DNA of 64,000 nucleotides, taken from positions 40,176,001 to 40,240,000 of the forward strand of contig OZ296653.1 of NCBI GenBank assembly GCA_965655095.1, written 5' to 3'. The notes below the pieces were generated by a model, which had not been told where the DNA came from, did not search any database, and was given only the letters and a program-made list of their open reading frames with translations. Numbering within the stretch: position 1 is the first letter of the stretch; each line of letters starts with the position of its first letter. A program made the translations under genes and the position numbers. This DNA is from Haplodiscus bocki (taxonomy: Eukaryota). Positions 1 to 62,958 of this stretch are shown in pieces.

Positions 1-3000
1 CGTCTAAGATGTTGATTGATTTCATCAAACCCTTGTCAGAGTTTTCCAGGACAGCTTATCTTGTTTTAACTAGTTTCACGATGACCCTGTTTGGTTTACT
101 TTCAAGAGTTTTTCCATAACAAGAATGGTTCCTCAGCCTGTAAAATGACTCTTCGCATTCTGGTGTTCAGGCTGATGTACGACTCCACTTCTCTCGTTTG
201 AACTGAAGGACTCGATGTACTTTAGTAACTTTGAGACCGAGATCCACGCAGAGCTGTAGGTAATGAATGAACCGTGTAAATTTCCAGTGCGAATTAGGTC
301 TGTACAAGTTCTGGCGTGGTAACGAGCTTATTGCCTGCTTGGTCCAATAGGCCCATCTCATACTCGGACAACATACTACGATCAATTTTCTCGTTGGTTG
401 GAGGCAGTGGAAAGTCTTTGCGCATATTGTGAAGGCCATAAGGAAAGACCAAATCGACTTCTAATACGAAGCTAATTTCCAAGTTAATTGCAGTCTTTAG
501 AAATGAGCTAAGTTCACACCAACGATCTCAAAATCATTTAAAAGAAGTGGCAATTTTTGCATAATTCTACCATAAAGATTGTTTGCATCCACGAGGAGAC
601 CATAAGTAGTGGCTTTTGTTTCGTCAAATCTTTCCAGGCATCTGTTGTTCATCGTAGCCAAAGCTTCGAAACAGTGAGGAGACACCTTAATCTGATCAAG
701 TTCTCAGCCATTTCCAAATGACTACGGTCTGTGAGCAATTCCACTCTTGCTTTACAAACTTTTACGAAAGCATCGCCAGAGAGATGAGACCACGTGTGAT
801 AGTGAGCACTATCCAATCCGTAAGTGGAGTAACTTTTCGAAACTGCTCCACCACACATGCAAGTAGCAAAGTGTCCAAACTTAGGTACAGGTCGTGGTAA
901 CTACCGAGATTTTCACACCCAAACTTTTGGAACTTGTGTCGCATGTAGGAAATTCTCTGGAGTAATTGCCACCTGACCATCTTGGAGGGAGTTCGTCCAT
1001 TTTTCTACACTGGGCAAAGAATTTTCCTGAAATTTCTCATAGAACTCGAAATAAGAGTAGGGGTAAAACCCCTTTTGATGGAGTAGTTGCAAATCGTCGG
1101 AACAATGTTAAGGAGAGAGATTATCCAAAAAACTGAAAATCTCTGCAAGTAAACAACCCACAAACTTTTCCAGAGATGAAGCCAAATCTCTATAAGGGTC
1201 GACGAAACGTAAATATTCATAGACAGGTTTTACAAACCCTCCACGGTCGGTGTAAGACGCAACTTTGTTAAGGATCGAAAGCACAATGTATTTTTCATTG
1301 CCTATAGGAATGACTTCAATTTTACTATCTGCTGGGAAAAAGTGTAGATTTTTGTAAAAAAAACGTAAATCATAAATCGAAAGATTATGAGCGAATATCG
1401 GAACGCAGTTTACTGTGCGTCATTTAAGGTTTCATTTACTGTGTGCGAAACCTAAGTACTCTACGCTGCCATGACAGTGATCGAAAACTCTATCGCTTTC
1501 AGCTAAATATCGTGCACAAATCCAGCACTGATCGGAAGGCAACTGGGGTGATCCTGTGTAGTTTCGACGGGTTCATTTCATAAATGTCTTTTGCAAGTCC
1601 GACGAAGCTTTGCATTCAACTAGACGACCTTTCCAATTTGAAAGAGACAGGTTCTGGAGTGTTGTGCTCGATAACAACCAGGCAAAATCCACAAGGTTCA
1701 TGTCTATCTTTTAATCCCGTTTGAGCTTCTATCAGAAGTGTTGGAGCATATAGTTAACGGTTCATTGAGCGACTCAAAATCAAAATGCATGAAAAAAAGT
1801 GCGAACCATCTCGAATGGTAATTTTGGAACTGGAGATCGAATCTTGTTCCGTCTGGTACTTTTATTGTAGCTGCTTCGTTTTGCATGCAAGTCTCAGAAT
1901 GTCTTTCGTAAATTTCACCTGTGAATGAAACAATAAAACAGTTACGACATATTTTGCTCCTCAATCGTGGAATTTGTTGTTCCAAATTGCTGACTAAAAT
2001 ATTCAAATCTTTAATCAAAACATAATGGTAAGCTTGACCTTCGTTAGGAAGAAGAAGGTCTAAGATGAATGATAAGTCCTGTCGTTTTGCTATTGGCAGT
2101 GGAAGGAGATCTTTCTTTTGGTAAAAGACAACATTGAACTAACTTTGTTTATAATTTCAAAGCTTGGAATTTGTTTGAAAGCCATCAGCATTCCGAAATC
2201 GCCAACTGCTGGATGTGTCAATGGATTAGACGGACAATATGTTTCTGGGTATATTTTCATTCTCCAACTGAAATTTTCAGACGGACCCTGAGCATAAGCA
2301 AAATGCCACGCTGCCAGGTAACAATAGAGGAACCAATTGTTATCATCCCGATTCCACATGTTCAACACGCAATTCGTACTCTGAAGCTCACTTGGCAATG
2401 CAAGGTAGGATGAACCTCAAACTGGCATGCAGCAAACTAGTTTCACGTGAAGACCATTGATCTCTTTGGGCATCCACTATTTTCCGTGGGGAATAAAACT
2501 GAACAGATCCGACAACAATTCATCCAGCATAGTGAAAAAAGCCTCCTCTGTGAGTCTCTCACCCCGGCACACTGTTTCCATTTTGGAACTCACGTGAATC
2601 GTGAGATCAATGGCGTCTTCATAAACTAAGGCTGGTTTTTCCGAATTAACTTTTCCTAATGGCTGCATTTTTTTCGGTTCTGCTTGAATATCTTCCTCTA
2701 TAAACTCATCAATAAGTTGCTTTCGGACCACCATGAAGTGTAGGAAATCAAAATCGCCGTTAGCTTCTAAGAAGTACGTCTGCACTGTACCACCGAAAAC
2801 AGATTCCTGAGGTAATTTGCCTTCCGAATTTTGGGTTTGTGTAACTGGACACAACGAATGAAATCTTTGTAAAGGTTCATCGAAAGTTTTTGTTTCAGAA
2901 AAGATGCTATTGCAATAAATGCAGAGTTTCCGTTTTACTGTACAAAGTTTTTCTTCGACCTGTTTTTTCATTACTGCCAAAGAATAACTTTTGAAAGGAC

Positions 3001-3100
3001 ATTCCATGCAGTTTCTCTGCTCAGACTTCGACGTTTCAATGTTACGAATACTGCGGAGATGCCAATATAAGTTTGGCTTGCTAAAAAAGTTTTCCTGCAA
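1..3100 (-). pseudogene. Protein-primed DNA polymerase B (pPolB) with N-terminal C2H2 zinc fingers and an endonuclease VII-like insert; frameshifted, C-terminus runs off the window
   Basis: Motifs in the expected order: C2H2-like CMEC/CIYC (ORF 2477-3100); NRDDNNWFLY; ExoI DFESL; QCWICARYLAESDRVFDHCHGSVEYLGFAH (about 1440-1530); FAHNLSIYDL; YHDLYLSLDTLLLACVVEQFRK; YGLDSAHY; motif A VDANNLYG; LKVTKVHRVLQFK; motif B NHSCYGKTLESK (about 100-130). Confidence 0.92.
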
Positions 3101-5619
3101 AAATCACAGGTTATCATTTTACGCTCCTGAGTTTATTGAACTGGAATTGAAAGCTTGAGGAGGTAATGTTTCCTCTTTTGTTCACGAGCGACTGTTTTGT
3201 TGACTAACTCTGCCGGCTGAAACTAGGTCATCTCATCAAATGCATAACTATTGAAGAAGTTCTAAATGTTTATGATAGTGTCTTCCGTCTGGATGTGAAA
3301 ACAAACACCTCCTATTCTTTTGTTCGTTCAAATATAAAGTGATGGCTTTTGTTCTCTGAAGACAACTTTTGCTAATCTTCAATTCAACTAAGACTAGCTT
3401 CATACGCGGATTTCGTTGAAATTTATTTGATATGAATTTACTGCCATCTGCTTATTGTAAATTATGCCTAAGTGTTTGCGTTATTTTTTGTTTTAGCGGG
3501 AGGACTTAATCCAACTGCTTTTACATTAATAGTCCCCAAACTGGAAAAAAACCAAGGTGAAGATTCTAAAAAACAACCCAACTGGTTCTCAGATAGGGGT
3601 ATCTCTTCACAATCGAAACGGAATAAGACTTCGCGACCACCAACAGGCAATTCAAGATTTCTACGTGCATGAAAAAATGCCTCTGCTAGGTCTACAATTC
3701 CCGAAACTGTTGACAATGTTAGGTGGGACGCAATTGCACTTCAACCGACTGAATGTGTATGGAATTTTTGACGCTCCACTTATCTGATATCTCTTCTCTG
3801 ACAATCGCCAGCGATTCATGAAATCAAGTTTCCTAAAAAGTATAGCCATAGAAGCCACAATAGCTGATGAATAGTTGAATCTCTAGTTTCATTCTATGAA
3901 TAATAAGTGCCTATAATATTGAATTTATAGATTTAGGTTCGTGTAGTATCAAAAGTGTAAACTCACTATAAAAAGAATAATTTTTGAAGGCAGCCGGTTG
4001 TCAATTTGACGATTTATTGAAATTTAACCAGGTACCGAAAAATGAGATATAGAATGATGCCAAAGTGAAAATGGTTTTCGTTTACTTTACATGTAATGTC
4101 TAGACATTGGATAGTTTGTTTTCATGTTTTGCCTACACTCCCAGCTTCAACAGGTTATAAACATGTTTACAAGTCATAAAACGAATAGAGACCTGATGAT
4201 CTCAATTTTTCACAAACAGGGTTTCGTGTAGGCAAAAGATGAAATTTGTTTACAAGTAGTAAAACAAGACCCTGCACGTTCCCATTTTCACAGAGTTCTA
4301 ACCTATCTTTTTCACCATTTTGTTTGCCAAAAAGCATTACTGCTTGTAAAAAAATTAACGGCTCCTTTTCTGCGTCAAAGTTTCAGCCCTAAACATCAAG
4401 CATCATCTATCTGGTTTTATTTCATCAGTTTCTATCATTCAACTTCTTACGTTCCCTAGAAAACAGTTTACTGTTCCAATTTGCTCAAGTGCTCAAATAA
4501 TGAATCGTCCATTCTCTGCCACAATTGACAAAGATTTCGGAAATAGCTAAATCGATATTTCGAAAAATGAGAGGCGTCTAATACGAGTTACAACCAAACT
4601 TATCGCAAAACGCGGACCCCCTTGTTTCTGAAACTTTTCAAAAAAGGAGTTGATGATGAGTATTATCTGGATCAACGACTGACACTCAAAGCTTCTGAGA
4701 TTCATCAGTTGACTAACAATGAAGAGAATGTTGGATTGCAACCAGGACCCGGAGAAGAGGATTTAATGCTAACTATCAAGCGAGAGATGTCATGTAAGAA
4801 ACAAACTTGCCAGATCGCGAACTTCTGGAACTAACTCTGTATAATACTTAATGTTGGCTTATTTGCTTCTGAACATGCATCTTCTTTAATCAATTCACTC
4901 TTTTATCCCAAGAACGTTCTCTTTTTGAAACTGTAAGTATATTTTGGGAATGTTACCAATTGTCAAAAAATTTTTTCCTAATTTCTGAAAACGGTTCAGG
5001 CTATGTACGAACAAAACCCCGATGTTTTTATGAGGTTTCGGAAAATTTTTCCGCATCATATTTGTTTTGAAGAACAGTGTAAAGGGAAAGCTTTTGGAAA
5101 CGACTTTGTTTTACTTTTGGTTTACACTGAAGAAAGCGAAAACTGTGACATTAAGCAAAAACATTATCATCTTCAGGAATCAAGCTCCAGACTTCAACAG
5201 CGAGGAAAGGGGTACGCCGTGCCAAGTTTATATTCAACTTTCTAGCCTCTGATACAAACTAGTTATTTATATTTGTACGGTGAAATATTTGGAAAACTTA
5301 ATCGAGCAGTGACATATAACAGGAATCTGGACAATTACCCGTTTTTCAAAAACACAAAACGAATACGCAAACGAGCCCCCGTGGTGACAAACATATATCA
5401 AAGATCAGAGAAAACTTGTCTCCAGTTTTCCTCAGTAGATTAAACCTGATACTTGATCGTCAACAGGCAGCCTTATTTTAAAGGATGCTTGATATTTTCA
5501 TTTCTCGCTTTGGTACTATAAACAATGAAATTCTAGCTTTTCATTTTGATTCATCTTGTCTTCAGAAAAAAAATGAAAACTTGTTAACGTGAGCGACGAT
5601 AAGTATAAAGTTCATAAAT

Positions 5620-6010
5620 ATATTACAAATCTTAATTGGCGTTCATCATCGATTAGCGGTATTACAGGGTAGTAAACCCTGAGAACAATGAGCAATCTAT
5701 AAGCAATAAAGTCCACAAAAGTTCGATGTAGGCGGCTGAAGAGGTTTTGAATTAATTCCTCACAACTGAAATCTGCATAGGTTAGGCGTTTGTTCACTTC
5801 CTTCTAGGCATCCAGACGTGAGCCCAATGCGTCCCCCAAAAAAACACTCTGTCTTTGTTAGATATTATGAGCCAATGCTTCCCTTCCGCATCCGAAATTT
5901 TGGAGTTCACAATAACGAAAGTGTTCTCGTTGTGGTATAGGAAATGTATCTGCAGAGAATACCCTCACGAATCTAAGTCTCAGGTTATAATACTTCGTAT
6001 TCTGTAGTAA
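5620..6010 (-). pseudogene. Adenain-like (C5) cysteine maturation protease of the Polinton
   Basis: Hand translation, absent from the ORF track: VRVFSADTFP, then after a frameshift ENTFVIVNSKISDAEGKHWLIISNKDRVFF. This matches the Polinton/adenoviral GVF.AD..P...IVN......G.HW catalytic His motif. Boundaries are approximate. Confidence 0.82.
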
Positions 6011-6069
6011 AAAATCGGTACTATCCATCAACGCTTGGTTCCCATCCTTGTGTTCGAGAAGATAATCCT

Positions 6070-7290
6070 GGAAACCTTCCGAGAAGAGTCAATGTAAATA
6101 GTAGAAGACCGTTCACCAAGGAAAAACACTTCTTCAGTGTTTGTTAGTTGTGCTGAAACCTTAGGCTAATAGGATTGGATCCGTTTGTTACCACTCGGTA
6201 AAGATAATCATGGGATGCTGTTATGTGTTGGTTAGGTCCAACATTAAAATAGAGTGATTAGTGTAGTCGTTATAAAGAACTCCAAGACCATGTTGACCAA
6301 AAACTAGAGCTTCGAGCGAATTAGGGTAGATTTCCTTGTCATTCTCTGTTACGAGAGGAGTTCCGGCAACAGGATAAACATTACGATAAACTGTAATGCT
6401 GTTCCGATTGAATTCCTGGAAATCCAAAGGATTTACGTGTTTGGCTCCCAGAAAAGCTTCGTTTGTTGTCATAGCTACTGAAAACCTTCGAATGGGCTCC
6501 ATGGTGGAAAAATCTTCCTGATTGGCACTCTGCATCTCTGTAGAAATGAGAAAAGTTTTACGTATGATCTTAGGATAAGGGTAAAGAGCAGTTTTGGTTA
6601 AGGCAGTCTCAATAGCTGAGTAAACATTGTCACACAGTCATTTTCCGAACCTATAAATCGGCTTGCATAATTTCGATTTCATAATCTTCGGTGTCATCAT
6701 CGTAAATTAGTGCGTTTTCAGGTCAGTTTTCGGCCACCGAAACTATCAGTGTAACTCCACTTATCAGGTGTTTATCATATGAGAAACAAAAAGCGACCCA
6801 ATTCTTTCAAGTAAAGACCTCTGCGGACTCCCGCGTTTCAGCTGACCTTGTATTGAAAACTGTTTCAGCAAAGTCATCAAGTTTCTCTTCATAGAGATAT
6901 CCCTGACATTTCAACCAAGTATCTGTTGCTTCCTGGTTGGGTAAAAATTGTGTTTCAATGAAAGCCTTCTGAGCGTAATTGCCATCAGCAGAAATTTTGA
7001 TGTCATACCCAAAAATACTACACTCAGAGGGAAAATATTGTATCAACAAAGAAAGGTAAATCAGTTGCCGCAGCGTTAGCTGTCGCCATTAGGTCTGCGA
7101 ATCCTAGATTGCACCTCGAGATAAATGTTATGTAAATCGATGAAGTAGCTTCATCTCTAACCACTTCCAACTCCAGTGTGGGTCCATTTGGAGCAAATAC
7201 TGGACCAACTTTTTGCTCGAATGAGGTATTGAAGGTAATCAAAAGAGGGGGACGTTCAAAAATATCCGATTATTTGCGTGATGCTTCAAC
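6070..7290 (-). pseudogene. Polinton major capsid protein (double jelly-roll, hexon-like)
   Basis: Fragments GPTLELEV, NYAQKAFIETQF, FLGAKHVNPLDFQEFNRNSITVYRN..P..GTPL, MLDLT and C-terminal FLGERSSTIYIDSSRKV. It lies between the protease and the core/penton ORFs. Confidence 0.85.
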
Positions 7291-7540
7291 AGGCAAAACC
7301 TTTGGTAACATTTTTTACTCATGAAAAGAAATTTGACAGACTTCTCTGTAGCTTTCTTTCGTCGACTGTTTCTTTTTACAGGTTTGCTCTTTTTGACTGA
7401 TGCACTATCTCCGATTTGCTTTCTCACTGTTCTTTTGACAGCTGATTTCGCAGCTTATTGTGAGATTTTTGTGGCAACATTCATCACTCTGGTAAACTTT
7501 GAACAAACAGTTACTACCCTATTAAATATAGTCCTAATAT
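7239..7540 (-). pseudogene. Small K/R-rich ORF, putative genome-condensing core protein
   Basis: VKKSKPVKRNSRRKKATEKS, located between the minor and major capsid genes. The function is inferred from composition and position only. Confidence 0.45.
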
Positions 7541-7544
7541 AAAA

Positions 7545-8410
7545 GGACTTAGATCTTGCCAAATTTCACTGTTATCGCAACACTACCGGTTCCAACAAAT
7601 GGGACGTAGTCTCCAAACACTGCAACTACTTCAATAAATAATTCCCGGATAGTGTCCAAAATTAGCTTTCTAAACTGCAATTCTAGGAACGATTTATGTT
7701 TCGTGGCAGACGTGATTTGTAGGTTACTCTTTGCTAGTCGTCTTTCTGTATCAATGACACGGAGAACAGGTGTTTTAGCTCCAGATATGTGCTGGTATTC
7801 GTTGATATCGCAGCTAACTAAGAAAATGTTGGTTTTTGCTGCAATATCTGCCGGTTAATCACCCATGATTGTTCGTGTTCGCTTCTTCACTTTATCGTTG
7901 TTACCAATAAAATACCCACCTCGGTGGGGATCCGGCATTCCCTTGAATCCTACCAAAACGAATAGACTTACGTCGTGAAGACTTATTCCATAACCATCTG
8001 CAAAGTTGAACTCTACAGAGTCTTCTTCAGTGCTAGAAGTAACAATAGGTTTCGTACTTTTAGCAACCGCAACATGAAAACAAGTGACAACATCAATGAG
8101 AGTTTTGTATTCACCATCACAAAAAATTCCAATGTTTGACCAATCTTCACGTTCCACCATTACACCTCCTCAGCTTGTATTGCCAGTTCATGGTGAATTA
8201 TTGAAAGGAGTTTTCGGTGTGTATACGATGTACTCTTTGGTAGTAACATTCTTGATACTTATTGGGAAAAGTATTTTTCCAAAGCCACTCTCCAATCTCC
8301 TTCTAGTTGTAAAGGTTCTGCGAGCACGTTGTGAACGCATGCCATTGTATTTGGTCGATAAGTTTCTATCGAACCAGTTGACTCTAAATATATGTCAAAC
8401 TAATCCATTT
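7545..8410 (-). pseudogene. Polinton minor capsid protein (penton-like single jelly-roll)
   Basis: CDINEYQHISGAKTPVLRVID (about 7755-7815) matches the typical YCDI...Q.VG....PLLR.V motif. It is preceded by G.Y...D..., LFVLVGF and followed by YVPF..G. Confidence 0.75.
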
Positions 8411-9344
8411 CTACCAAGTTTTTGTCAACTCTGACTCGTGAAACTTCCATTGAAGGTCTTCTCCTTTAGAGTCAACCAGCAAATAAGTGGGTGGATTAAA
8501 TGTTGCAGCTTTGGTATTCTGGAAGACTTCGTCAGTGAAGCGTTGTTTGTACCCTTTTTCAAGCGGTACATTTTCCCACGCTACTCGAACTTTGTCACCT
8601 GGTTTCAAGTCTGGTTTTCTGACCAGTTTACTCGGCAGTTAAACTATCTAGAAACCAAGTTTGTTACATTCTTCGCCGAAACCTGGTTGGGTGCCAATCC
8701 TGTTACGCTATCGAGAGTTGATTGCGTCAACGAAAGGCTGGAATTCGTTTATGTAGCGATAAAACCAATTGTTCTACGTTTGTTGAAAATGATTTGCGAA
8801 TATTGCGTTCTGCAAATGCCCCTTTCGCTTCACTATGCGTGGTGTAAGTGTCAATGCCTTTGCTTCCACAGAATATTTTGAAAGCTCCCTTGAACTCGGT
8901 TCTTCATCAGACCATAATTTCAATGGTTTAGTTTTGGTGATCATGCGACCATAAGTTTTAGCACTCTCCTCCGCACCTTTAGTTCGCATTGGCTGAACTC
9001 TTGAGTTTTAGTGACAGTAAATCAACAGCAACAACATAGCATTTACCACAAATGCTGTATTCGGCATGTTTGTCTACAGAAGCTGTATCACTAGACCAGA
9101 CCTCTTTGATATCATAAGCCATAACTTTCACACGGGGAACACGTCTGCTGTATTGTCTGTACTTCGTATGTGAATTTTTACTCTGTAGGAAAGTTTCAAA
9201 TTGCACCGGGGACAGAAAACTGGCATTTTGCAGATTAGAAACCCTTCCATACGCTGCCGGTCCTTTCTTATATAACTTATCCAGTTTTAGTTTCTCAGAA
9301 TCTTGAGAGTTTACCACACTCGCGTAAAACAGAGTTCTGCTCAA
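8411..9344 (-). pseudogene. Retroviral-type (rve/DDE) integrase of the Polinton
   Basis: KLYKKGPAAYG..SNL; WSSD; YVVAVDLLS; KPLKLWSD; C-terminal KPGDKVRVA..NVPLEKGYKQRFTDEVF...PPTYLLVDSKGEDLQWKFHESEL, a hallmark of Polinton integrases. Split over at least three frames. Confidence 0.92.
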
Positions 9345-10149
9345 AAATTTTCTACAAACTGCTGATCATGCAGTCGGTGTTTCTTAGATGCTTTCCCTGG
9401 CGTTTTGATTTCAAGTCTCACTATTGTTTTGCTTCCAGTAGGTTTGAGTATTTACTTTGCGTCGAAGTTAGCGACAAAGCTCGGGGAAAAATTGGTCCTC
9501 TCTAAAAATCAGTTTGCAGTCAGGGTCATTCAGTCCTTTCTTTGTTTGCCGTAAGATGTAAAGGAAATCGGTAGCCTCAATCGTGGTTACGCGAGCATCT
9601 ACTGTGAGAAATCCATCTCCGTTCACTCCTACATCCGAGGCTTCGTAAATTTTTCAAGATTGCTTCTGCTTTCTCGAGCTTGTGCGGGCTACAATATTGA
9701 TAGTGATTTCGAAAACCTTTTCTCCACAATATCCGGCTGTTTTTCTACCACATGGGATAGATTTAAATTTTCCTACCACAGGTTTTTGTCTCTGTAGCAA
9801 CGTCAGTTATTTGGCCTTCTCAGTGATTGATGGATCGAACAAAACCTCGAATGATTTCGGTTGCTCTTCAACAAACTTTTTAGGAATTAAAAAAATTCTC
9901 ATGAGCTCATTTTGGAAGATAATAGTAAATTGGACAACTGATCTCCTGCATGAATTTGACTCCTTTGTTGGAGGTGAGATATCGTCTTTTTTTGTCACAT
10001 TGCATAATACTTCCAACTCCATTTCATAGGTGAGTAAGCGATCGCTATTGAATGGAATAATTCTGTTAACTATACTCAGGGTACATTTACAGAGATATTG
10101 CACTTCATCTGCGCTACAGCTACATTCTTTCTTTTGAATGCTTGAGTAG

Positions 10150-10810
10150 ATGCGCGTCTTTCTTTCATTTGTCAAAGCGGTCGCTTTCGCAAGAGAAGAA
10201 GCTAGATTAAAAAATGTAGGAACTGTTCCGGTGATATTGGAACAGAACCGCAACGATTCACTTTTCTGCGGATAGAAATCAACCAGAAAATGACCATATG
10301 AGGACAAACTAGCTTTTTGAACACTGCGACTTGCTTAAGTGTCTACCAAAGTGATCAATATGCTGAACGTCATGCGGAGACTTGAATAAGACAACGTGTG
10401 TTGTCTTGCGGTCAATTGTACGCGACAATATGCTTTGATGACAGAAAATATGTTTGACAAAAATGCAGTGAACCTTTTCATGTCTTCCAGCAAAGGCGAT
10501 CTCAAAAAATTCCTTTCCCTGGTAATTTTCTTCGCAGGAATGATGAAAAACCAGTAAACAGTTTTGAAGCTGCTTAATCAATTCGAAATCGAGACATGGG
10601 ATGAACTCTACGTTGTTTTTCAGCCATTTTATTGAATAATGGCTGCTACTCCTTGCAAAGTTGTAGGTTTTTTGAAGGTTGTGATAAAAAGTTGTAGCTG
10701 ATGCTAACAAGGCAATTATAGGTCGCGTCTCTTGCCTAAGCTTCCAGGACTCACGAGACGTATAAAGCCTATCGTTAGTGAAGATAATTTTGTTCACAGA
10801 TGTGGGCTGG
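10150..10810 (-). pseudogene. A32-like (FtsK/HerA superfamily) genome-packaging ATPase
   Basis: Frameshifted Walker A remnant VSPGSLGK (about 10735-10760); decayed Walker B LLVFHH; AGRHEKVHCIFVKH; SRTI....THVVLFKSPHDVQHI; YGHFLVDF.P...ESLRFCSNI. Confidence 0.88.
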
Positions 10811-13037
10811 GAAGTATATAACCAACCGCAGCTGACAAGAGAGACACCCATACTGGCATTTCTTCACAGGGTACTTCAAAGAAAATTAGTTCTGCTAGAC
10901 TGCTAATGATGAATATCAGAAGAATTACAGCTTGGAAAAAAGCTTGGTCAGATCTGGATAACGTTGTTAAGCTACAAAACTTGCTTTTCCATCTCCAGGT
11001 ATAAATACTTTAGGCTAAAAAAATTCATTTGAGAGTTGTAGGTATTTTATATGCAAAGACAGAAATATTAGAATCATCACAGTGTTTCAGAGTTACTCTA
11101 TTGCTTATTCCGGTTTCAATGCATGTACCGGAAAACGGCAATTTCGACATTGTCATCTCTGTCTTGTAGCTCGTTGAATAATCGCTCGGGCAAGAGGGGA
11201 TTCTCTTTACCAGATAGAGTTGTAGGTTTAGGGGGTGGTGGACGGCTTGATGTTGTTGTCTTTATCAGCTGCTTCAATCGGGCATTTGACATGAATTCCG
11301 ATGAAGTTCAGAAAAGAGTGAATGGAATCGGTACTCGACTTAGGCTGAAGGAATTCAGCATAGCCAAAAAAGACGACTGCCTTCCGAGAAAATTTATGTA
11401 ATCCAACTTGTCGGTATTCTTCTTTCACGAGTTCAATTGTAATAATTCTAGTTGATTCCAACATTCTTGATATTGGCTTGGTTGGTTGTTCATACTGATA
11501 TGGTTAAACTCCGTGACACGGAGAGGAAAAAGTTTTTGATTTTCTGGGTTCGGGCAGCTGTAGACAAGCGTTTTGCTGACATTGACTTAGCCAGAGATGA
11601 AAACAATTTTGATTTCTCCCGTGAGTAATGATGTCGTGGGAAAAATGCTGAGTGATTGAGACAATTGGGACTGCAGTTCTGCGGGAATTCGGAGGCTTTC
11701 GGACAGTTAAGGTGATCCAAATGAATGACCCGGGTGAAGAAGTTTCGTAGAAACAAACATTTTTCGTTACCTTCGGCGTAGACGATGTTTGGGAAGCGGA
11801 CTTTTAAGCCTAGAAAGAAACAGTAGAAAAAAGAATAATCGTAAATTCCAAAGTCCCAGTTCAGACCGTGTATAATATTTGTAATCCAAGTATAGCTTTT
11901 CTGTGCCCTGACAGAAACTAGATGGATGGCATAAGGTGGCTTCAGAAGATTTGTATCGTTATATTCAAAACCCCGGACAGAAAAATCTTTAATAAAGGTT
12001 GATTTAAGAAACGAAAGCCTTCGAAATCAATAGCAACTGTTTGAGGAGTTAGCATAACAAAAAAGTGAAGTTTTTGGTGTAGTATTCTGGTTGAAAACGC
12101 TAAATAAAATAAATTGACCGTTGATTGCTCTAACAGCTTATCCGGAGGACTTCAGTGTAATTGGCTGTTAACTTTGCTACGGCTTGCAAGAAACAGAATA
12201 GTCAATAGGTTTTATACCCTTTGAACAACAAATCAGAATTCACCGATAGAACTGGTGGACATCCCTTCTTTAATATTTCAATATCGACCAATGGGTAAAG
12301 TTGATTGCAGAAGCCAATAAAAAAGTTTCTTCCACGTTCCGAAGCGAATTCTGTTGTCCTCATTACAGTTTGCAAATCTCTGAGATCCCTCAAATTAATG
12401 TCCGAATGTTATATCTGCACTTCCCCAACTTATTTTTATAGCAAACTAACAAGGAAATCCAAAATTGGTTTATTGTTATCGACACATTATAGTGTTCTGC
12501 GACAGTTCACGCAAATTTTACTTGATTAAAAAAATGGTTCTGAAATTGGTCTAAAGGGATGTGTTTACTACATATACTTCACCTTCGAACTTCATATAAG
12601 TATGGTTCAATTCTTTCTCCTTGATGATGTGCCAAATAAACTGAAACCAAAGTTGCTAACAGAGCGAGCGTTAATCACTATCTTGAAAAGCAGCTGTTTG
12701 CAATCCATTGTCGATTTAATCATTAAATACTTGCAACTATGCGGTACTAAGAAACAGATTTCACTCTTTGTTGAGACTTTCCCTACTGCTAGTCCATTTC
12801 GAAGGATAAACTATTGGTGGCTTTCAGAATCGAGCCCTGAACCTTCAGAACTATAGCAGCTGTTTGTACCATGTGAGCTATTTGTGCATTATCGTGAACG
12901 TAGTGATGTGATATATATTCAAAAGATAACCAGTATATTGAGAAGATAACACCCTATGGAGGACTAAAAACAGTATCAACCGTCTTCTTAGATTTTATCG
13001 CTATTGTTTCCATAACTCCCATATTTTTCACCAATGA

Positions 13038-13186
13038 GGATTCACATGGTTTTTTGGGGGTACATACCAAGATTGCGTCAATCTTTTCGCGGGAAAAGAT
13101 TGAGAGAGACGAAAGATTCACCCGCCAAAAAATTGACGCAATCTTCGGATTGACCCGCGAAAAACTATGTGGATCCCTATACTACT
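13038..13186. repeat. Polinton right terminus: 56-bp-arm inverted repeat (fold-back) followed by the ACTACT end
   Basis: 13038-13093 matches the reverse complement of 13121-13176 at 46/56 positions without gaps, around a 27-nt loop. ACTACT lies at 13181-13186; the candidate 6-bp TSD is ACCGTT (13187-13192). Confidence 0.8.
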
Positions 13187-13194
13187 ACCGTTAA

Positions 13195-14196: not shown

Positions 14197-14943
14197 TAAA
14201 AATGTATTTCAAAATTTTTCACTAATACTTATAGATAAAAATATATCGGCTAAAAATATGCCGGTGCAAGCCGGCTGTCTTGTTACAACATTCTCGGTCT
14301 CCACCAGTGAATGATCGCTTACAAAATTATCCCTGTTTGCCGCTTTGCCTTATTGCGGAATTTATTTTCGCTGGCTCTTCTTCGCTTATTTATTGCTTAA
14401 GCTGTGGTAAATACACTGGCCACAACTTTGAAATTGCATTTGAAGTCTTGCTTTGTGACTTCGAATGAAAACTTTCACCTGCCAATTCTAAAAATTATAA
14501 TTTTTTGAAGGAAATTCGGAAAACAACCAAACCAAGGGGGTGTTTGTTGCTCTGTATGATGTATTGCACGGCTGCGCCGTAAAATTAAAGTTAACAAAGC
14601 ATCGAATATGCAAATATACTTCAAAATTTCGAATTGCGACATGCGAATAATTTCATGCCAAATATAATTAGAAGAGATACTGTTATCACGTAATTCTAGC
14701 ATTAATCTGTCTTTCCGCTACCATCGGATGCTTCGAATCATGATAAATTTTCGTCAGGGGACTTTTCCCAGATTAGCTAGCATTCTGCGTCCAAGTGCAA
14801 CCTACTCTTAATCAGAGTTAACTTAACATCTATATTGGCGAAATTTGAATTGGCGAAATGTAACCCCAAATGTCTATGACGTCGTCAGAAATTGGCCGAG
14901 TTATCACTAATAACGCTCTAACCAGGAAAGGTAATTAACGTAC

Positions 14944-15684
14944 CTTGGAAAGAAAGTAATCAATAAGCGTCAACGTTGGAGAAGAAAATTTCTCGTATTG
15001 ATAATGCTGTTCTTCATGGGCCAACAAAGAAGAAGAGTTTTCATTGAATATTTTCATGTTCAGAGCAATTCTGTGTTTGTTGGCTGCTACATGCGCCGCA
15101 CTTTCTGCTCTCGCAGCTTTGTTCACTTCTACACCGACGTTAATTGCATCTTGGGGAGGAAGCCCTACACCGGCTGCAGGACTACGCCGTCTGACACACC
15201 CCCCAGCCACGAGGGGAAACATGCCTGTATTTAGCGGATGGGCCACAATTCGTAGCATCTCATTTGGGTCACCAGTCACCAATGCGTGGAATAATACACC
15301 AATGTAGACGACACAACATGATTCAATTAATAGAATCTTCAACTTATCTTCAGAACTTGGATTTCTAGCTAAGGCGTGATCGGATAGAAGTCGAAGAATA
15401 AGTTTAACACCGGGCCAGTCACATGCTTTGGATATAATTTGGGAGTTTATTGATTCAGCACGGCGTCTCTTAGAGGCCAACAAAATGGAAGTTTTATCGA
15501 TTAAGGATGCACGGTTGTTGGCCATTAGTTGACCCACTCTTCGAGGGCTAGCGGTGAAATGAGAAGTGTTCTGACTCGATTCATCCTCACTGCCTTCTTC
15601 TAGGGTGACTTTGGTACTGTCTTGGAGCGATTGGTAAACGCAGGATGACAAAGCACCACACAAGTTCCTCAGCGTTATGGCAAC
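14944..15684 (-). CDS. DMXL: DMXL coding exon 13 (last exon seen; ends at a splice donor)
   Basis: ttttttcag|VAITLRNLCGALSSCVYQSL...WPGV..I...GG...YEKFSSP..TLIDYFLSK|gtacgt. Confidence 0.9.
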
Positions 15685-18600
15685 CTGAAAAAAACGGACA
15701 ACCAAAAATCCAAACTGCAGTCCACTTGTTTTTGAAAGGCTCTTTTTGAGATTTTATGCATCGCGGTGCCAAAAAAATTGCGCAAAAAAATGACACCTGA
15801 AAAAACACAGATGAGTAGCGCCAGTAAATAGCGTCTTCAGAAAACTAAATTATTCAACGTCGCATGGTTTATTCGCAAATGCTTTCGCTAGTTTTCAGCA
15901 AAATTATATTTTCCCTAGTACACATTTTTCCTTTGTAGAAGAGAATATAATAGTACGGATACAATCGAGCTACGATTCCAAACCAGGTGTTGCTAGTAAG
16001 ATTCCGGTCTCAGGTATTTTGTTCTAACCCTCAAAGAATTGGTAGACTGTGGAGGACTTGTATAACTAGTCAACGATTTGGCTAAGTCTTTGCAAAACTT
16101 CTCTAAGTAGTTGAAAGGGTTAACAACCACTGTCTGCACTGGGGCCAAACAAGCCGATATCAATGGAAGTGCTACTGGGAAAGGCAACGCCGAAGACAAC
16201 TGTTTGCGACTGTAGTTCTGCTGCAGTTCTTGCAGAAGCTGTACCAACTCCATTCTGATGGCTGACAACCCACCTCCGTTGCATCCGTACAGCACCGAAT
16301 AAGATAGAAATATTCTCAAAAGTTGCTGGTTTCTTTTCAACCAGCATCTACGACTACGGCTCTTTTCTAAGTTGACATCAGATTGATCAAACACAAAAAT
16401 ATTCGAGCTTGATTCCGGACTAAGAGATCTGAAGTCGTCTTCGTGGAACTCTTCAACCGATTCGCGTTCATAACACAGAGTATGCAGCAAGTTGACAACT
16501 TTTTCAAGCCACATACGAAAGTATCCCCTCAAATGGCTTTCCTCACAGTCAAACGATATTGCAAGAGTCCGCAGCTCCTCTACAAAGATCTTCAAACAAG
16601 CTGACTGTTTCAAATACACTGCGAATATTTCTTTGGTCGAGTCTGAAGCGGTTGCTTTCTTTGATTCCATTTCGAGTGCAATCGTCTGATTTTCTTTTAT
16701 AGGTGAGCTTTCATCTTCCAGTTCAATGGGAGTCAAAACATCTCCGAGGTCAATATCTAATTTCATGTCGAAATTCACGCTCCCGTTAACTTCGACAGGT
16801 GCACCCCAATCGAACATCCCTGTATCAGTTGATTGCTTCTCAGCTTGAATTACCTGATTCACACCTTGGCCTCCAAAACCATCAAATCCATTAGCATTTT
16901 CATGCGACGGTTCTTCAATTGTCCCAGACCGGAAAGGTTTCCGTTTTACAGAAATTTGGTTCACATCTAAGGAGGAGTTCAGGTCTAGATTGTCTTTTCG
17001 GACAGCCGGTAAGATAGTCAACACCTCGAGAGCAAGGAGCGGACAGCCATTTGTGAAATGTGCGGCAGCAGTTTTGAAAAAGAGCAAACGTTCTTCTTTT
17101 GTAACTTCATTCAAATTCATCATTTGCTCTCCTTTTGCATCGTGTACTCCAGTCATGTGAGCTAAAAACACAGATTGTCCTGCGATCGACATGTCATTCA
17201 TTTGCTCGATTTTGAGAATATGTCTTCTCAATATCATCGGATGTCTTCGCAAATAGTTATAGAAGTTGAAGACTGAAATATTTTGACTTTGATCGGTGGA
17301 ACAGGCTTCAATCAATGCTATTAAAGCATGGCTGTAATTTTTCAGCCACCAGTTTGCGATGCAGCGGAGGAACGGGCTATGATTGGACGGATATCCTGCT
17401 CCGACACTGCTGTTATTTACAGCACGAGAAGGGGCTTGGGTTCTAGGCTCATTCACAACTCCATTGACAGGGTTAATTACATGTTGCTGCAGAATCTCTT
17501 GCGCTTTCTGTGAAAAGTCTAGTTGTTCCTCATAAAGTCGCGAAATCACTATCGCTAATTGTATGTCGTGCAATTTTTTAACGCACACCTGCACTGCGTC
17601 ATCAAGGGCTCCGGCGAGTAGGAAAAACGCAGCTGCGTGTTCGAATCTCAGCTTAGAATTCAAGGCGAATGCGTTTTTCAAAGCGATTCTTTTGTTTTCG
17701 GCAGTTGAGAAATCTTTGGCGAAAAAGTTTGTCATTCGTTCATCTCCCACGCTCTTGAACAGCCCCTTCAACACGTTTTTCTTCTGCATTGCAATGTAAA
17801 AAATGGCCGCGTCCATTGGCTCTTTTCTAAACTGAAAATGTTCGCGTGCAACTTTTTCGATCAAACGTCGAAGAGTGTTCAGATTTGTGACCCACCACCC
17901 AACACCCACGTTACGTAAATCTGTCCACTTGGAATTAGGTCTCAAGGCAGCCAGCATTTGGTCTTCACTTTCACTTAGGTGCGCCCACGCAAACCATCCA
18001 GGGTCTAACACTTGCTGAGCTGGTGATGCGAATGATTGCCCACACGCTCTCAGAATGTACTGGTGCAGTTTTAGTCCCATCACAAACTTCATTCCACATT
18101 CATCAATGGTATCTTTGGCCAGGCTACTGTCGGCTCCTGTTGGAACAAAATTGAAAATCATTAGGGCGATCTTTAAGGCTCTGGTACCGGAGCGAGAATA
18201 TCGGTTGTTAACATTTTGTATTTCTACTTTTCATAACATGATTTGACCATTATGGCTATTTGTCTCTTTGAATTTGGTATTGCTGCAAAAACTGTAGAGC
18301 CCAAATATAGTGTGAAGGAGTGGGACTTCGTATCATTCTGAATCAATGTTTCGAATTTTCTCAATCTAAAGAGCTGCGGACCTTGCTGATCCAACAAAAA
18401 ACAAGCGCAGAACAGCTCAAAGTCGGCGGTGCCCATGTGTCGGGCGCGAAAATTTTAGTGAAACAAAGAAATTCATTTTTTTTGTCTCACAGTGCCGAAA
18501 AAATTTCGTAGAAGGCACCTTTTGAAGTTTGTGAGTACTAGTCCGTGCTGGTTATAGACTACACTTGCATGCTTTAAAATATAATGCCAGTGAAAAAAGT

Positions 18601-21600
18601 AGACAATTCGTTGTGATTTAAAAATTCAGAAGTGACTACAAGAGTCGGTTTTTTTTACCAAAGTAAAAGCGCCGACAAAAATCACCTCGAAGCAAAATCA
18701 CTGTAAATAGTTAAGCTAATGTCATAATAAGTTCAAGGCGACAAATAAATGAAGATATAAATTGACACCTTTACAATACAGACATCTCATGTATCAGCGG
18801 CTTTTCTCTGACAAAAAATCTGAAGTAAATTGATTTAGAAGCAACCTGTGCTTTAACTCGTTCCACCCCAAAATACCCAAGCCCAAAATGCCCAAGGCTA
18901 AAATACCTTAAATCCCAAAATACTTCAAGTCCCAAAATACCCAAACTCGAAATATACAAAGTACTCAAGATTTAAACTAAATACAAACTAAATAATTAAA
19001 AGCGTCTTAACATTAAAGAACCCAAAATGTTTGCACGCTGCATAAATGCTTAATTGGTATCGTAATTCTAGACACGATTATTAATAGACTGAACAAAATT
19101 ACTACCACATCTACTATCTACTTTGCAAAAACACTATTTTGTCATAATTTTGTCCCGATATTGTTTTAGGGGGAACACAATTTTGTCTCTCAGGGCCGAA
19201 AATTTTGTGAATTTTCGGAAAAAACTATTCATGAAAATTATTAATTCCAAAGTCTCAAAAGCTATAATTTCAGAAAATTATTTTGTGCAAAAATTTTTGG
19301 ACAAGAAATGCGGAATTTTGGAAATGCAAGTTTCCGATTATTTTTTAGCGAAAACTAGTTTCAAAATTTTTTTGACACTGTGACAAAATCTTGATAATAA
19401 GCCCCCCTTCCCCGTGTATAACCATTTTTGTTAGCCTCGCGGCTGTTTTTCTGTTCAAGGTAATTTTCTGTAAATATTTTGACTAAAGGTATTTTAATCT
19501 GACACCACCAATATTTTGAATCCTCAATAAACCTACGTAATTAAAAGTGTCTGGAAACTTTTGGGTTAAGACGCTAATAATTGTTTAATAAGTATAGTTA
19601 TTTCAATCTTGGGTATTTTGGACTTTGGGTTTGGATACTTTGTCTTGCCACCGCATAAAACTAAAATTCGGTAATTGGACGCTTAGTTCCAGTCGTCTCT
19701 CCATTTTCGGGAAATTTACATAAATCGAATGTACACTGGGAAAATATTTTTCCACTTGAACCGAAATTTATAACAGTTGATTTTACCTTGAGCGAAATCA
19801 GACGATTCTGTGCTGATAGTAGAAACAACTTCTGCGATAGCCAAAAGATGCATCTGTTCTGTCCTCGTCAAGTCAGGAAGTTGAATTTTTGTCAGACATT
19901 GAGAGAGCAAACGCGACTGTGCTGCTCCAAAATATATCGGTCCAATGCTTTTGACAGCTATAGAAAGTTCTTCAGGTTTTGGCGAAAGGGAAGCACTTTC
20001 CCTTGACTTCTCGCCGCTGTCATGGAAAAAATCTATGTCCAAATCTAGCATCGAATCAACAGGTTTCTCTTCACTAAACCCAAACAAGCCAGCGTATTTG
20101 TCATTGGGGTCTTGTACACTTGAATTTTCGGAGGTGTTCTTTGGCCGGATGTCAGATTTACCAGTTTTGCCTCTGAGGTTCAACAACGGATTGGCAGTGG
20201 AAACACTCATGTTGTCCATTTCTACGAGGCTGTGCAGAGGTAGAGGAGGAATGTTGTCAATTTGGGACTTGTTGAGGTCATTGGCTGAGAAGGAAGTAGA
20301 TGCTTTCTTTTGGATTGTCATAGACCTGCTCAACGTTGCCCGTCGGGTTTTCATTGCGTCATGTTTCTCGTCTTCTTCCAGATCTCCTCGTATGATCGCT
20401 TTTACAACTGCTTCCTCTCCGACTACAGCAATTGAAGAAATACCATAATTCAAAGATTATAAGCCTAAACGGGATATAAGACCTTTCGATTTCTATTCTC
20501 CCTAAAAATAGCTCAGTTCAGAGCAGAAAAATCCTCACACTTTCCAACTTTTAGTAAACGAAAGCAACGTCAAAATTGTCCAATGATCCACTTTCTCATT
20601 GAATTAACTTTTTCAAAATACAAAAGAAATTTTGGGAGGTAATTGTTCACACTTCGCATAAACTTTCTTTTGAGAAACATAGTATAAATTCGAAGATCCC
20701 TAAAGAAATCTCAGAGCTTACTTTTTTGTTCCAAAAATACGACACCCCTCTTACTATTCACAATGAACGCCTGTTTACAGAGGGGTCTTATTTATACCCG
20801 CGAAAATATGGTATATGTACACGAATGTCTAAATCGGACTATTTTCTCAAATAATTTCCCATCCCACAAACAGCCTATATGTCCTTACCAGCAACCAAGC
20901 TTCTCAGACCCCAAACGATTCTAAAAATGCAACGGAAAACCGAATAAAAGCGCAAACAACCAAGGATCACAAAAAGAAAGGAATTCGAACTAATGTTGAA
21001 CTAATGTTTTTGAAAACTGACACACACCATAAAATCTAAGCAGTTTTCAAACTATTGGTTCTTGATATTCTATGTTTTACTCCCACGAAATCATGTCAAC
21101 TATAGTCTAATTACTCGATCATATCAGCGACAAATTCTTCAGTTAATTTTGGAACACGATGACAGTAAATTGACATACTCACCAATAGTTTTGACCAAAT
21201 GAGCCAAAATTGCTTTTACGCGCGACGTTTTCCCAAAATTAAGAAGACCAATCAACTGTTTCGGGTGATACTGAGGTAACATCGGTGTCAAACAGCGGCT
21301 TTCCTCAAAGATGCCAGGATCAATGAAGTCCCGCAAAGACACAGCAGCCCCAGTTTCACTTTCAATTTTACTGGCTTCGCAAACCTGAAGCACACAATAT
21401 CCATTGCTAATACAGCCGGCTAGCCCCAGCATATTTTCCACTCACCAATTTCGTAAAAAAAAAGATGAAAACGTTTTTTTTTTCGAAAGAAAACACTCCT
21501 TATTCATCGTATTTTCTAATTATTCCAACTTCACAAATTTTCTGATTTTTTGCCAAAAAAACCTCATACTTAAGGCGGAAAAGATATTTTTAAGAAATAA

Positions 21601-24600
21601 TACCACTTGATACGCATTCTACAGCAAATCTGCCCCTTTACCGATTTTGAAAAAAAATCCTCTTAAAAAAAGACTTTCAAAAAATACGTAAAAATTTCGT
21701 ACGTATTTGAGAAATCTTACTATTTCAGTCGCATTCCACGGCAAATTTGCTATAACTTGGTGATAAAAAAATTTCAATTCCAGAATCGCCCGAACATTCG
21801 GATATTTTCTATTGGCAAACGAACGTAAAAAAACGCACGCGTTGAGTGGCTAAATTTCCTTCTATAATATAAATATGGGTAGAAAATTGAAAAATATTGA
21901 ACTAATTTTTTTACACTTTTCAACGATAATAAAGATCAGTTCTCAGTTGTAAAAAAAGGGCCCCAGGCGGGGCTCGAATATCTACGCACAAGAAATAAAA
22001 ATCGCATTTCGAGGCTACCAAAAAAAAGTCGCGAGGAGGCTCACTTTTGATTCAAAGAAGTTGATTCAATAACGATACTGAAGCTTGAAAGAATTGTTGA
22101 AGAGGGGGATTTACAACAGTATCAAGCGCGTTTTTATCTTACGATATGCAGTTGAAAAAACCTATTTAGAAAAGCTAAATTGCAGAATATATGGCAAAAA
22201 TAGTTATTTCGGCTTCAAATACGTTCTCCAATATTTGCAAAAAATTGAGAAAATTGGCAAAACTATATAGAGGTGTAATCTTCTGCTTTGGAATACGAAA
22301 GAACGTAAATTCCCGAAAAAATACGTAAGTTTCCAAAAAAAAATATCAATCACTGATGGAAACAAATATTGGCGTTTTCAAAGAAATGTGATGCAGCAAC
22401 GGATCAGGTGGCAAAACGATTAAACAATTACGTTGTTCTAAGCCAGTGACGTCATGACGATACAAGCGGTGTGGTAGTAAACGTGCGGCAGAAGTGTCCG
22501 GGACATAGATTAAAGGTCTGAAAAAAGTTCGACGTAGTCCCTATAATATTTTCTGCCTTCAGCTTCGATATACACAACACAACAGAAATAAAATTGGCTC
22601 TTAGGACAGAATTATTTTTCATAGCAATCTTGACTTTCAAAATTTGCAAGAACGGATACAAACCTTGTCATTAACATTTTGTGATGCCAAAGAATTTAAA
22701 GAGTTCACGCTTCCTTTCAGAGAAGCGCTTGCGCTGTGTAATGAAGAAGAATCCTGGCTTTTTCTCATTTTTGTCAATGGGTTCTTAGCGTCACTCAGAC
22801 TTTTAGATATATCAGTGAGAGTTCCTCTTTTTGGCTTGCCTAGACCAGTGGAGCCAGAGCCAAACAAGCTATCGGAAGCTTTTTTCTTGCTTTGCCACTG
22901 ACTGTATATTTGCATTTCGTTCATGAGGCCCAGAATGAGGATTCCATTCGCAGCGCACGTCATCAGAAGTGGGAATGGAGAAAGCTGGTCGGAAGTTGAA
23001 ATGTTGACAAAAGCTATTGGGACCCATTTGCGACAGCAGCTTTCACCTGAATTATAGTTTGCACATGAGGGAAGTATCCAAGAAAAAATTAAGATGTCAT
23101 GTTACCAACATTCTAGTATACAAGAAGCCCGGTGCGCGGGATATTTTTTGACGCCCCTCACCAATGCTTTAGGATGTTTTTTGAAAAGTTTTTAGAATGT
23201 TCTAAGCTCACAGATTATATTTGAGTAAGTTCATCGGAATTTTAGAGTAAAAATTTCAAACGACTATATCAAATCTGATTACATTTAGCCGGAAAAACTC
23301 GAATTGACATCGCGGAGCACCAGGAACACTTCCTAGATGCAAAAAGAACAAAATTTGAGCAGTACCTGAGATACTATTATTTTGAATAATAGAACTGTTG
23401 GCAGTGATTGCACTTTTTGGATTGCTGGAAGCGGTGGAAGATATGCTGGTTGTTTGTGAGGCGTAGACAAAAACAGTTTCCCCAGTGCATACACACAACA
23501 AATATGAGCTATCGTACTTTGGAACCCAACTTAAGTGAACATATTCTCGCGGTGCTGTGCCGTTTTCTTGCAAATCTAGATACACTTTTTTCACACACGT
23601 TGCTCCAAGACTCGCAGATGGCTTCTTACACTGGCGGTCGGAGTCACTAGAGAAGGGTTTTCTGCTAGAACTAGTCTTTTTATAAAACGAGGATATTCGT
23701 CCGAAGGTTAGAGGCTTGGAAGAGACTCCGTTAAGAGCATTGTGGCACGCACGTGGGGGTACAACTGACCCTCGAGAAGTTCCGGCTTTCAGCTCCTCAA
23801 TGGTTGCTCCTTGAACATACACAGGTGGCTTCACACCTGAATTGACAACAGTATCTTCTAAATTCCACGCAGCACCTCCTGAACTTTCATTTTCATATAT
23901 ATCAACTCGAACTGTGACAGTTTCGTTCTTCAAATCCGGGATCTTGTACGACAAGGCTATTCTTCCAAAGTTGGCACAAGTTACACCAACAGGTACAGAT
24001 GGTGTTGTTAGGCTGTTTTCGTTTCCTCGACTGTATACTGAAGTCCATTTTTTCCAATCAAACGATTCGTTGTTGGGTGTCAAAGAGCATTGCCAAAAGT
24101 GCACATGATTGTCGCTTGTAGCGGTGATAATTTGATAAAGAGTATCAGTTCTACTGAGGGGATGTTTTACCAGTTTGCTCACACCTTCAGGCTCAGCAAC
24201 ACAGGTGGCCTCAATGTTAGCACCATCTAGCGGCAATTTTTGGCTACCTTTATACTGCGAGGAAATGGTCAACAGATTTCGAATTTCGGAGCAGCTTTTC
24301 TTTTTCGGACTGCCTCGCTGTACATCGTTCAACGTTTCTTCTGGAATGTTAGACATATTTATGGGGAACATCGGCAAGTTAGAGCTGTCAAAATTCATCC
24401 TAATTACCCAAGTGTAAATATTCCAGGCAGCATCTGCATACTCGAGAGATTTGGCAATGGTTACAAGAACGAAAGTTTCATCGAATACAGAATCTGAGAA
24501 GTTTTCGGGACTATGCAAGTCTGAGGAATTTTCAGTACTGGTTACATCGTTCAGTTTGAAGACGTGAAACAATTTGACAACCGAATTTTGTAGAAATTTA

Positions 24601-62884: not shown

Positions 62885-62958
62885 TCTTTTCAAGAGGTTT
62901 TAGCTTCTGCATAGCGAAGGATCCTTCACTATGCAGAAGCTAAAACCTCTTGAAAAGA
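62885..62958. repeat. 74-bp near-perfect palindrome (37-bp arms, no spacer)
   Basis: Centred on GGATCC (62919-62924); the only mismatch is C62915/A62928. Confidence 0.97.

Follow-up and report, generated by a model that had tools for sequence, protein, structure and literature searches.

A Polinton family of Haplodiscus bocki carries a long palindrome at one of its two ends, and the short centre of this palindrome occurs in two reverse-complementary forms that are scattered among nearly identical copies. On balance, we lean towards reading the palindrome as a replication structure by which the displaced strand would regain a duplex origin, while template switching would flip the centre. An earlier note on the same DNA had described a fold-back with symmetric E2F-like and ATF/C-EBP-like motifs at a Polinton terminus as a candidate origin or promoter module. 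The flipping centre was hidden from that sequence-only reading because the copy at hand has lost it, and the idea of an origin module remains plausible.

The Polinton family H

The window, i.e. the whole stretch of 64,000 nucleotides analysed (G000:C6:40176001-40240000), holds an element that, judged by its sequence, is a Polinton of a family termed H. It runs 5.7 kb further left, to G000:C6:40170314, and has a total length of 18,873 bp. Within the window, the following parts were delineated:

1..13186, minus strand: decayed Polinton of family H (tblastn of the L085 and L035 ORFs, Pfam on those ORFs, far end)
10125..10797, minus strand: broken packaging ATPase gene (tblastn, 60–65%; Pox_A32 E 2e-4 on L085, under the curated cut-off)
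8417..9302, minus strand: broken retroviral-type integrase gene (tblastn; rve E 2e-9 on L085)
5615..6028, minus strand: broken adenovirus-type protease gene (tblastn; Peptidase_C5 E 0.003, under the cut-off)
1..3117, minus strand: broken region of the protein-primed DNA polymerase B with N-terminal zinc fingers (tblastn; DNA_pol_B_2 E 8e-16 on L035)

Broken homologues of the L085 and L035 ORFs were detected by tblastn across window positions 1–12402 on the minus strand, and the main ORFs of the family point away from the terminus at 13186, termed end A. The weak Pox_A32 and Peptidase_C5 matches sit in the expected gene block. Pfam analysis of 34 ORF fragments of the window itself returned zero Polinton families, as these genes are broken, and the ORFs preceding the protease in family H copies gave zero Pfam matches, a double jelly-roll capsid protein included. 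The polymerase gene of other copies comprises an endonuclease VII-like motif (Endonuclease_7 E 0.001 on L035). The left terminal repeat, which the earlier note had expected upstream, was found at G000:C6:40170314, where the far terminus of the window copy exhibits 81% identity over 105 bp to the far end of another copy. The hexamer ACCGTT, adjoining the outside of end A, had been taken for one half of a target-site duplication, a proposal not borne out for this copy, as the 6 bp at its far end differ at 4 of 6 positions. For the family as a whole, 6-bp duplications, inside the 5–8 bp expected of a Polinton/Maverick, were observed within one mismatch in 16 of 18 paired-end elements, 12 of them exact, which together with the pPolB, rve, ATPase and protease genes of family copies corroborated the assignment to a Polinton terminus.

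The terminal repeats of end A and the opposite end B match over ~72 bp at 88–93% (BLAST), or at 83 of 106 positions without gaps, and thus lie at or under the range of 100–1500 bp that the available text of 10.1101/2023.08.22.554363 gives for Polinton/Maverick terminal inverted repeats. With the Polintons/Mavericks ('adintoviruses'), as covered in the available text of that source and of PMC8502044, family H shares pPolB, rve, ATPase, protease, AG...CT ends, the 6-bp duplication and a size of 17–19 kb, whereas its repeat is short and decayed (~72 bp at 90%, 106 bp at 78%) and one of its ends carries an inverted duplicate with two isomers. Such a one-ended, two-isomer palindrome is not described in the available parts of either source, the word 'hairpin' being absent from those of the former.

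A DNA search for the fold-back returned at least 103 matches, and 40 of 430 candidates were scored. All 30 of the top-ranking loci (one being the window and one a duplicate) continue into one and the same Polinton interior, showing that the fold-back is part of the Polinton, as had been claimed; an independent MITE was rejected, since these loci run on into the element and have no flanks of their own. The interior boundary was present in 57 of 64 examined loci (56 distinct), the remaining 7 being without such a match.

Several further features were noted in family H copies and in the window. The first ORF behind the hairpin (L085:541-831) encodes a small membrane-anchored EGF-like protein (weak Pfam match) with a homologue in family S, described below. 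A ribosomal protein S5-like ORF near end B (L035:8507-9001, also in L038, L040 and L044) contains two Pfam domains above the cut-off, and a variable ~27-bp tandem array located 1.6–3.1 kb inside end B of L035 and other copies encodes a lysine/arginine-rich repeat ORF. Tandem segmental repeats at G000:C2:36546858-36578485 each comprise a family H end B plus host flank. Elsewhere in the window we found large exons of a host RAVE/Rav1p_C-domain gene (14935–25643, minus strand), a broken LINE-type endonuclease/reverse transcriptase (45669–48865, plus strand) and a separate, loopless, near-perfect 74-bp palindrome (62885–62958). A viral contig collection yielded one marginal protein match and zero repeat-pattern matches, none of the 19 family H ORFs inspected had a TAAATG start (poxvirus-type promoter), and a sigma-70 promoter scan gave nothing above shuffles, the sigma-70 model being inapt here.

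Fold-back of the window copy and its full-length form

The arms of the window fold-back (13038–13093 and 13121–13176, 56 nt each) are complementary at 46 of 56 positions (82%) with a spacing of 27 nt, and the element terminus at 13186 follows 10 bp past the arm. These dimensions, as well as all five motif strings at their coordinates, were as reported by the earlier note. As single-stranded DNA the fold-back has a predicted energy of −40 kcal/mol (z −8.25), matched by 0 of 200 shuffles, and the predicted fold pairs more bases than the 56-bp arms alone. Alignment to the natural full-length copy L012 revealed that the window copy is without 58 bases between 13093 and 13094, from which it follows that the 27-nt 'loop' and the best double E2F site are deletion products. 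Thus, the arms of the proposed hairpin exist, whereas its ungapped 56/27/56 shape belongs to a deletion derivative. The double E2F-like site TTTTCGCGGGAAAA at 13084–13097, which had been listed among the E2F-like sites of the arms, is the junction of this deletion, and a double E2F site like that at adenovirus nt 280 was accordingly discarded as a feature of family H, the junction being confined to one copy. The parts of the window copy are:

13177..13186, minus strand: 10-bp unpaired terminal tail (AGTAGT... element start) outside the palindrome (sequence; shared by other copies; not paired in the full-copy fold)
13094..13176, minus strand: outer arm, 83 of 95 bp left, equal to terminal-repeat positions 11–93 (alignment to L012)
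13094–13120, minus strand: orphaned stretch of the outer arm, the former '27-nt loop', its partner lost (alignment to L012)
13038..13093, plus strand: remnant of the inner arm, 56 of 95 bp, an inverted duplicate of the terminal repeat (alignment)
13093..13094, no strand: junction of the 58-bp deletion, which took out the 7-nt flip/flop centre together with a 33-bp unit (alignment to L012)
13154..13163, minus strand: E2F-like word, core of 33-bp unit 1, outer arm (sequence and unit comparison)
13121..13130, minus strand: E2F-like word, core of 33-bp unit 2, outer arm, here in a private variant (sequence and unit comparison)
13084..13093, plus strand: E2F-like word, core of unit 2, inner arm (sequence and L012 alignment)
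13132..13142, plus strand: CRE/C-EBP-like site, outer arm, older CG form (motif identity from the available text of PMC3668366)
13072..13082, minus strand: CRE/C-EBP-like site, inner arm, older CG form (sequence and arm comparison)
13187..13192, no strand: host flank at the expected target-site duplication, 4 of 6 positions differing at the far end (paired-end comparison)

In its full form the palindrome lies behind a 10-bp tail and comprises two mutually inverted arms of 95 bp each, separated by a centre of 7 nt, together 197 bp located 10 bp inside the end, and it is found at end A only. Alignment identified the inner arm as an inverted copy of the short terminal repeat, present at this one end, and the symmetry of the E2F and ATF/C-EBP motifs, which had been taken as the point of the structure, stems from this duplication. 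Among the 56 distinct end-A loci, alignment gave 26 full forms, 20 central deletions and 10 truncations, with the lengths of seven loci judged by eye. Central deletions affect 1 of 11 young copies versus 19 of 35 older ones, and the full form is present in both the oldest and the youngest copies. L025 (G000:C12:2821912-2822309) exhibits an extra ~110-bp inverted duplication of interior sequence between tail and palindrome.

In the youngest copies the arms are identical at 93–95 of 95 positions, compared to 83 of 106 between the two termini, the outer arm resembling the inner arm more than the far terminal repeat. The arm-to-arm mismatch increases with copy age (rho 0.75, n=34, leaving out L007, L008, L013, L026 and L145), and private changes show no depletion around the centre (0.040 versus 0.023–0.025 elsewhere in the arms), together indicating that the arms are not kept matched once inserted. 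Identical changes in both arms numbered 13, against ~7 expected by chance. A 286-nt contig from the DNA run X5 extends, without gaps and with 12 differences, from the unique interior through inner arm and centre into the outer arm, of which it includes 56 bases; the long palindrome, whatever the orientation of its centre, thus exists outside the assembly.

Two states of the palindrome centre

The 7-nt centre occurs as two reverse complements, with state X in 26 and state Y in 13 of the 39 scorable copies (17 of 56 being unscorable), a ratio with a binomial p of 0.053 against 1:1. Exact genome-wide patterns of the two forms were found 8 and 7 times. Among the 11 youngest scorable copies X:Y was 6:5, and an older clade contained 10 X to 1 Y. 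On an interior tree of 53 sequences (L029, L130, L133 and L147 left out; most inner branches unresolved) the centre states required 17 and 11 changes, compared to shuffled means of 17.8 and 11.0, and its well-supported branches force at least 6–7 centre changes. The centre states are likewise scattered on a polymerase-region tree of 16 rows, so that X and Y as two fixed subfamilies are contradicted by both trees. At the closest range, the Y copy L010 differs from the X copies L012 and L016 by 6–8 positions per 1,500 neighbouring bases (99.5% alike). Since the two arms diverge as copies age, with no less mismatch around the centre, the centre state was presumably set before insertion.

Perfect arms prevent short reads from separating the centre states, and an assembly error in perfect-armed copies is possible; five Y copies with arms 12–20% apart argue against it. 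The truncated copies L022 and L149 are broken at the identical base beside the 7-nt centre, as would be expected if hairpin tips were cut in the chromosome.

This shared breakpoint is also in line with an alternative that we regard as unlikely, in which the end-A stem would prime synthesis or extrude as a cruciform, the endonuclease VII-like domain within the polymerase would cut it, resolution would invert the palindrome as it does in parvoviruses and poxviruses, and the tail would be restored by copying the far end. Cruciforms are a substrate of T4 endonuclease VII, and 14 of the 15 scanned family H stretches contain an endonuclease VII-like D-H...H..N motif; the motif is, however, also present in the hairpin-less family G, and no HUH motif was detected in the ORFs of 11 stretches scanned. 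The near-equal isomers of the young copies would be expected from such a process, whereas the 10 X to 1 Y of the older clade deviates from the 1:1 ratio expected under obligatory hairpin transfer. The arm variants point both ways: an old three-base variant lies in the outer arm of one Y copy and in the inner arm of 7 X copies, and a variant at position 39 agrees in direction (5 X versus 1 Y), but the Y copies carry mixed arm variants with no clean whole-arm swap, the direction fitting in 2 Y copies. Hairpin priming has been proposed for the palindromes of virophages and a PLV in the available text of 10.64898/2026.07.28.741278; in family H the 10 nt next to the 3' end lie outside the stem, which in this form cannot act as a primer.

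Motifs within the 33-bp repeat array

Each terminal repeat, at both ends, consists of three units phased at 33 bp that keep a common core (T-run, CGC, purine-rich, AATC) between divergent spacers. The E2F-like word occurs in 4 of the 6 paralogous unit cores and forms the core of this 33-bp-phased repeat, which is likely a protein-binding array. There are four such words in 207 bp of end A and two at end B, compared to 0.3 per kb in the host DNA of the window, and the word is absent from families K, K2 and T as well as from every A-end of family G. The consensus of E2F sites is TTTSSCGS.

Such an array could act as a promoter or enhancer, bound by E2F/DP and an ATF-C/EBP dimer, with the duplication doubling the sites and the flip arising as a side effect. 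We consider this improbable, although part of the evidence is in its favour. The word TTTCGCGG coincides with a site that E2F binds in the left terminal region of adenovirus 5 (PMC4726734, available text), its density at end A exceeds that of the host, the cores stay in 33-bp phase although the third spacer differs wholly between the ends, the main ORFs lead away from end A, and the first gene behind the hairpin encodes the weakly matching EGF-like membrane protein. Family S moreover holds an end-B module inside its terminal repeats, where no DNA end is possible. Yet the conserved core includes GTGAATC, which is not part of the E2F consensus, the hairpins of families K and K2 are without the E2F word (0/26), and it is left unexplained why two unrelated sequences should each have the duplicate inverted and starting 10–12 nt inside the end. 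The available text of PMC8502044 puts forward the concept of LxCxE 'oncoid' proteins; in the ten family H stretches scanned we found no LxCxE ORF, bar one match in the protease.

Motif conservation was assessed on 70 arms from 36 copies, with L007, L008 and L013 collapsed and two unreliable arms dropped. Non-CpG differences amounted to 0.041–0.049 in the motifs versus 0.074 elsewhere, a gap that is due to shared variants in spacer 3, whereas the private substitution rates of the motifs (0.022–0.031) and of non-motif positions (0.028) were equal. The E2F-like core survives in the 33-bp units at both ends, while the motifs are not extra-protected from private changes.

The ATF/C-EBP site, in contrast, could not be upheld as a conserved element, as its central C was present in only 22 of 70 arms and altered in 48, end B having a third form of the site. 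The TGAC half and the AA end of this bZIP site are retained, and 9 of 12 family K ends also contain TGACACAA, both speaking for a promoter. C/EBP is known to tolerate other forms of its site. Against a promoter, the bound CRE/C-EBP forms given in the available text of PMC3668366 are TGAC/GCAA and TGAT/GCAA, ACAA being absent from its main text. Random CpG decay as the source of the bZIP change was rejected, because C/T segregates at 22/48 arms with zero G-to-A partners in 70.

Related Polinton families

Family G, the closer relative of family H (ATPase 75–81% identical), has ordinary terminal repeats of 96–219 bp and no hairpin (z 0.0–1.2, three A ends), so that the hairpin is dispensable in the G lineage. 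Family K2, the termini of which match those of family H by nothing beyond 7-mers, exhibits a fold-back at end A in 5 of 5 paired elements (z −5.5 to −11.2), compared to z −0.5 to −1.2 at end B in 4 of 5 and −4.5 in one. The K2 stem begins ~12 nt inside end A, which, like that of family H, is the end upstream of the ATPase-integrase-protease-polymerase block. A compensatory two-base change was detected in K2, with GG in 11 of 12 outer and 10 of 11 inner arms and TT in 5 of 5 end B sequences. The same layout in a sequence-unrelated family indicates that structure, not sequence, is kept, and the H/K2 layout may be ancestral with loss in family G or may have two origins. In 200 bp of the K and K2 termini the E2F word was found in 0 of 26 cases (30 loci, 26 with a terminus), which speaks against the motifs as the point of the structure. 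The end A fold of family K is weaker (z −1.7, −3.8 and −5.1).

These comparisons bear on the possibility that the palindrome is a passive by-product, i.e. a chance fold-back duplication on a successful master copy, with its flips and homogenisation being ordinary, functionless template-switch mutations. Such a mechanism is already known (PMC8604942, available text), family G thrives without a hairpin, the palindrome shows instability, with deletions or truncations at 30 of 56 loci, and the star-like interior tree of family H with its short inner branches implies that few master lineages were sampled. We nevertheless find this explanation doubtful, given that K2, an unrelated sequence, shares end, offset and a compensatory change, and that full length was kept from the oldest to the youngest copies despite frequent deletion after insertion.

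Additional observations concern the other families. The K2 loci (L195-L212 as well as L215, L219, L220, L222 and L226) represent a decayed Polinton with a ~110-bp fold-back at end A only; in L205 the centre is maybe in the flipped form or carries a point change. The abundant Polinton family S (G000:C1:27280122-27298872; L108, L109, L112, L113; L086-L105, L115-L118) has interior DNA unlike that of family H and harbours, ~555 bp into each of its two long terminal repeats, a 98%-identical H end B terminus in which the 33-bp unit is present 1–5 times. We interpret this end-B module as a capture of a family H terminus by another family. The first 130 bp of family S termini (L106-L118) contain a subterminal stem, the arms of which co-change between copies, adjoining TGACGTAA, CCAAT words and a ~29-bp tandem array. 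At L179:2630-3122 a family G copy is interrupted by a 493-bp element, with AGTAGT at its termini and inverted repeats of 101 bp, which is possibly a miniature Polinton derivative.

Discussion

In the replication reading that we favour, strand-displacement synthesis would expose end A as a single strand, which would fold into a long stem beside the free 10-base tail. Adenovirus re-initiates via an end-to-end panhandle; the stem of family H may substitute for such a panhandle as the duplex origin for protein-primed re-initiation, without involvement of the far end. Template switching of the polymerase between the arms would then homogenise them and invert the centre, the orientation of which would be drawn during replication of the element and frozen at insertion, and the full-length hairpin may be under selection in the active lineage. 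At inverted repeats, template switching brings about spacer inversion and arm homogenisation, also without a function (PMC8604942, available text). Counting against the replication reading are the closer family G without a hairpin, the weak fold of family K, the small excess of identical changes in both arms of family H and the competition between hairpin and panhandle: with predicted energies of −115 kcal/mol for the hairpin and −82 for the end-to-end panhandle, the hairpin should win, hindering re-initiation at end B, which is without a long hairpin and folds weakly (−13 to −15).

The nearest precedent are the terminal palindromes of protist virophages and a PLV from Halocafeteria, as presented in the available text of 10.64898/2026.07.28.741278. 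There, too, an integrated Polinton-related element ends in a palindrome that was considered a possible replication hairpin. Those palindromes, however, are located inside the TIRs beside the target duplication, measure 52 nt in the figured case and belong mostly to non-pPolB elements, with no flip or orientation reported in that text, whereas the family H palindrome is found at one end of an animal pPolB element, 10 bp inside, with 197 bp and two isomers. The chromosomal template-switch events of PMC8604942, in the text available, likewise include arm homogenisation and spacer inversion, but they are rare and involve short repeats, whereas in family H the orientation is randomised within <1% divergence and appears to stop changing after insertion. 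The adenovirus left end (PMC4726734, available text) shares with family H a protein-primed linear genome and TTTCGCGG-type words near the end facing the first gene; its site was shown there to bind E2F/Rb, whereas the family H word is a candidate site. In the literature searched, including the available parts of 10.1101/2024.03.18.585575 and PMC11296320 and thus with partial coverage, we found no description of a one-ended or flipping palindrome in Polintons.

Parvoviruses such as AAV and poxviruses possess terminal hairpins with an asymmetric flip/flop centre, the hairpin being the very end that primes or closes the genome. Family H resembles them in having an asymmetric centre in two reverse-complement forms, but differs by the 10-nt unpaired tail outside the hairpin in integrated copies, by the mixed arm variants of its Y copies and by the absence of a Rep/HUH motif from the ORFs scanned. 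A hybrid of both modes, to which we assign a low probability, would be an animal Polinton clade with protein priming at the tips and a one-end hairpin or cruciform that the polymerase would cut with its endonuclease VII-like domain. If true, each integrated copy would be a snapshot of one resolution product, and adenovirus-type and parvovirus/poxvirus-type end replication would be joined in one genome.

For the interpretation of such termini, motif symmetry in a decayed palindrome is no evidence of transcription-factor logic. The copying of Polinton ends has so far been inferred from gene content, and the model cited for it in the available text of 10.64898/2026.07.28.741278 is the original end-annealing proposal. 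If the palindrome of family H is indeed a replication structure, short terminal repeats would be predicted to accompany one-ended fold-backs, and a two-state centre, drawn anew between near-identical copies and frozen thereafter, would provide a direct genomic record of a replication intermediate.
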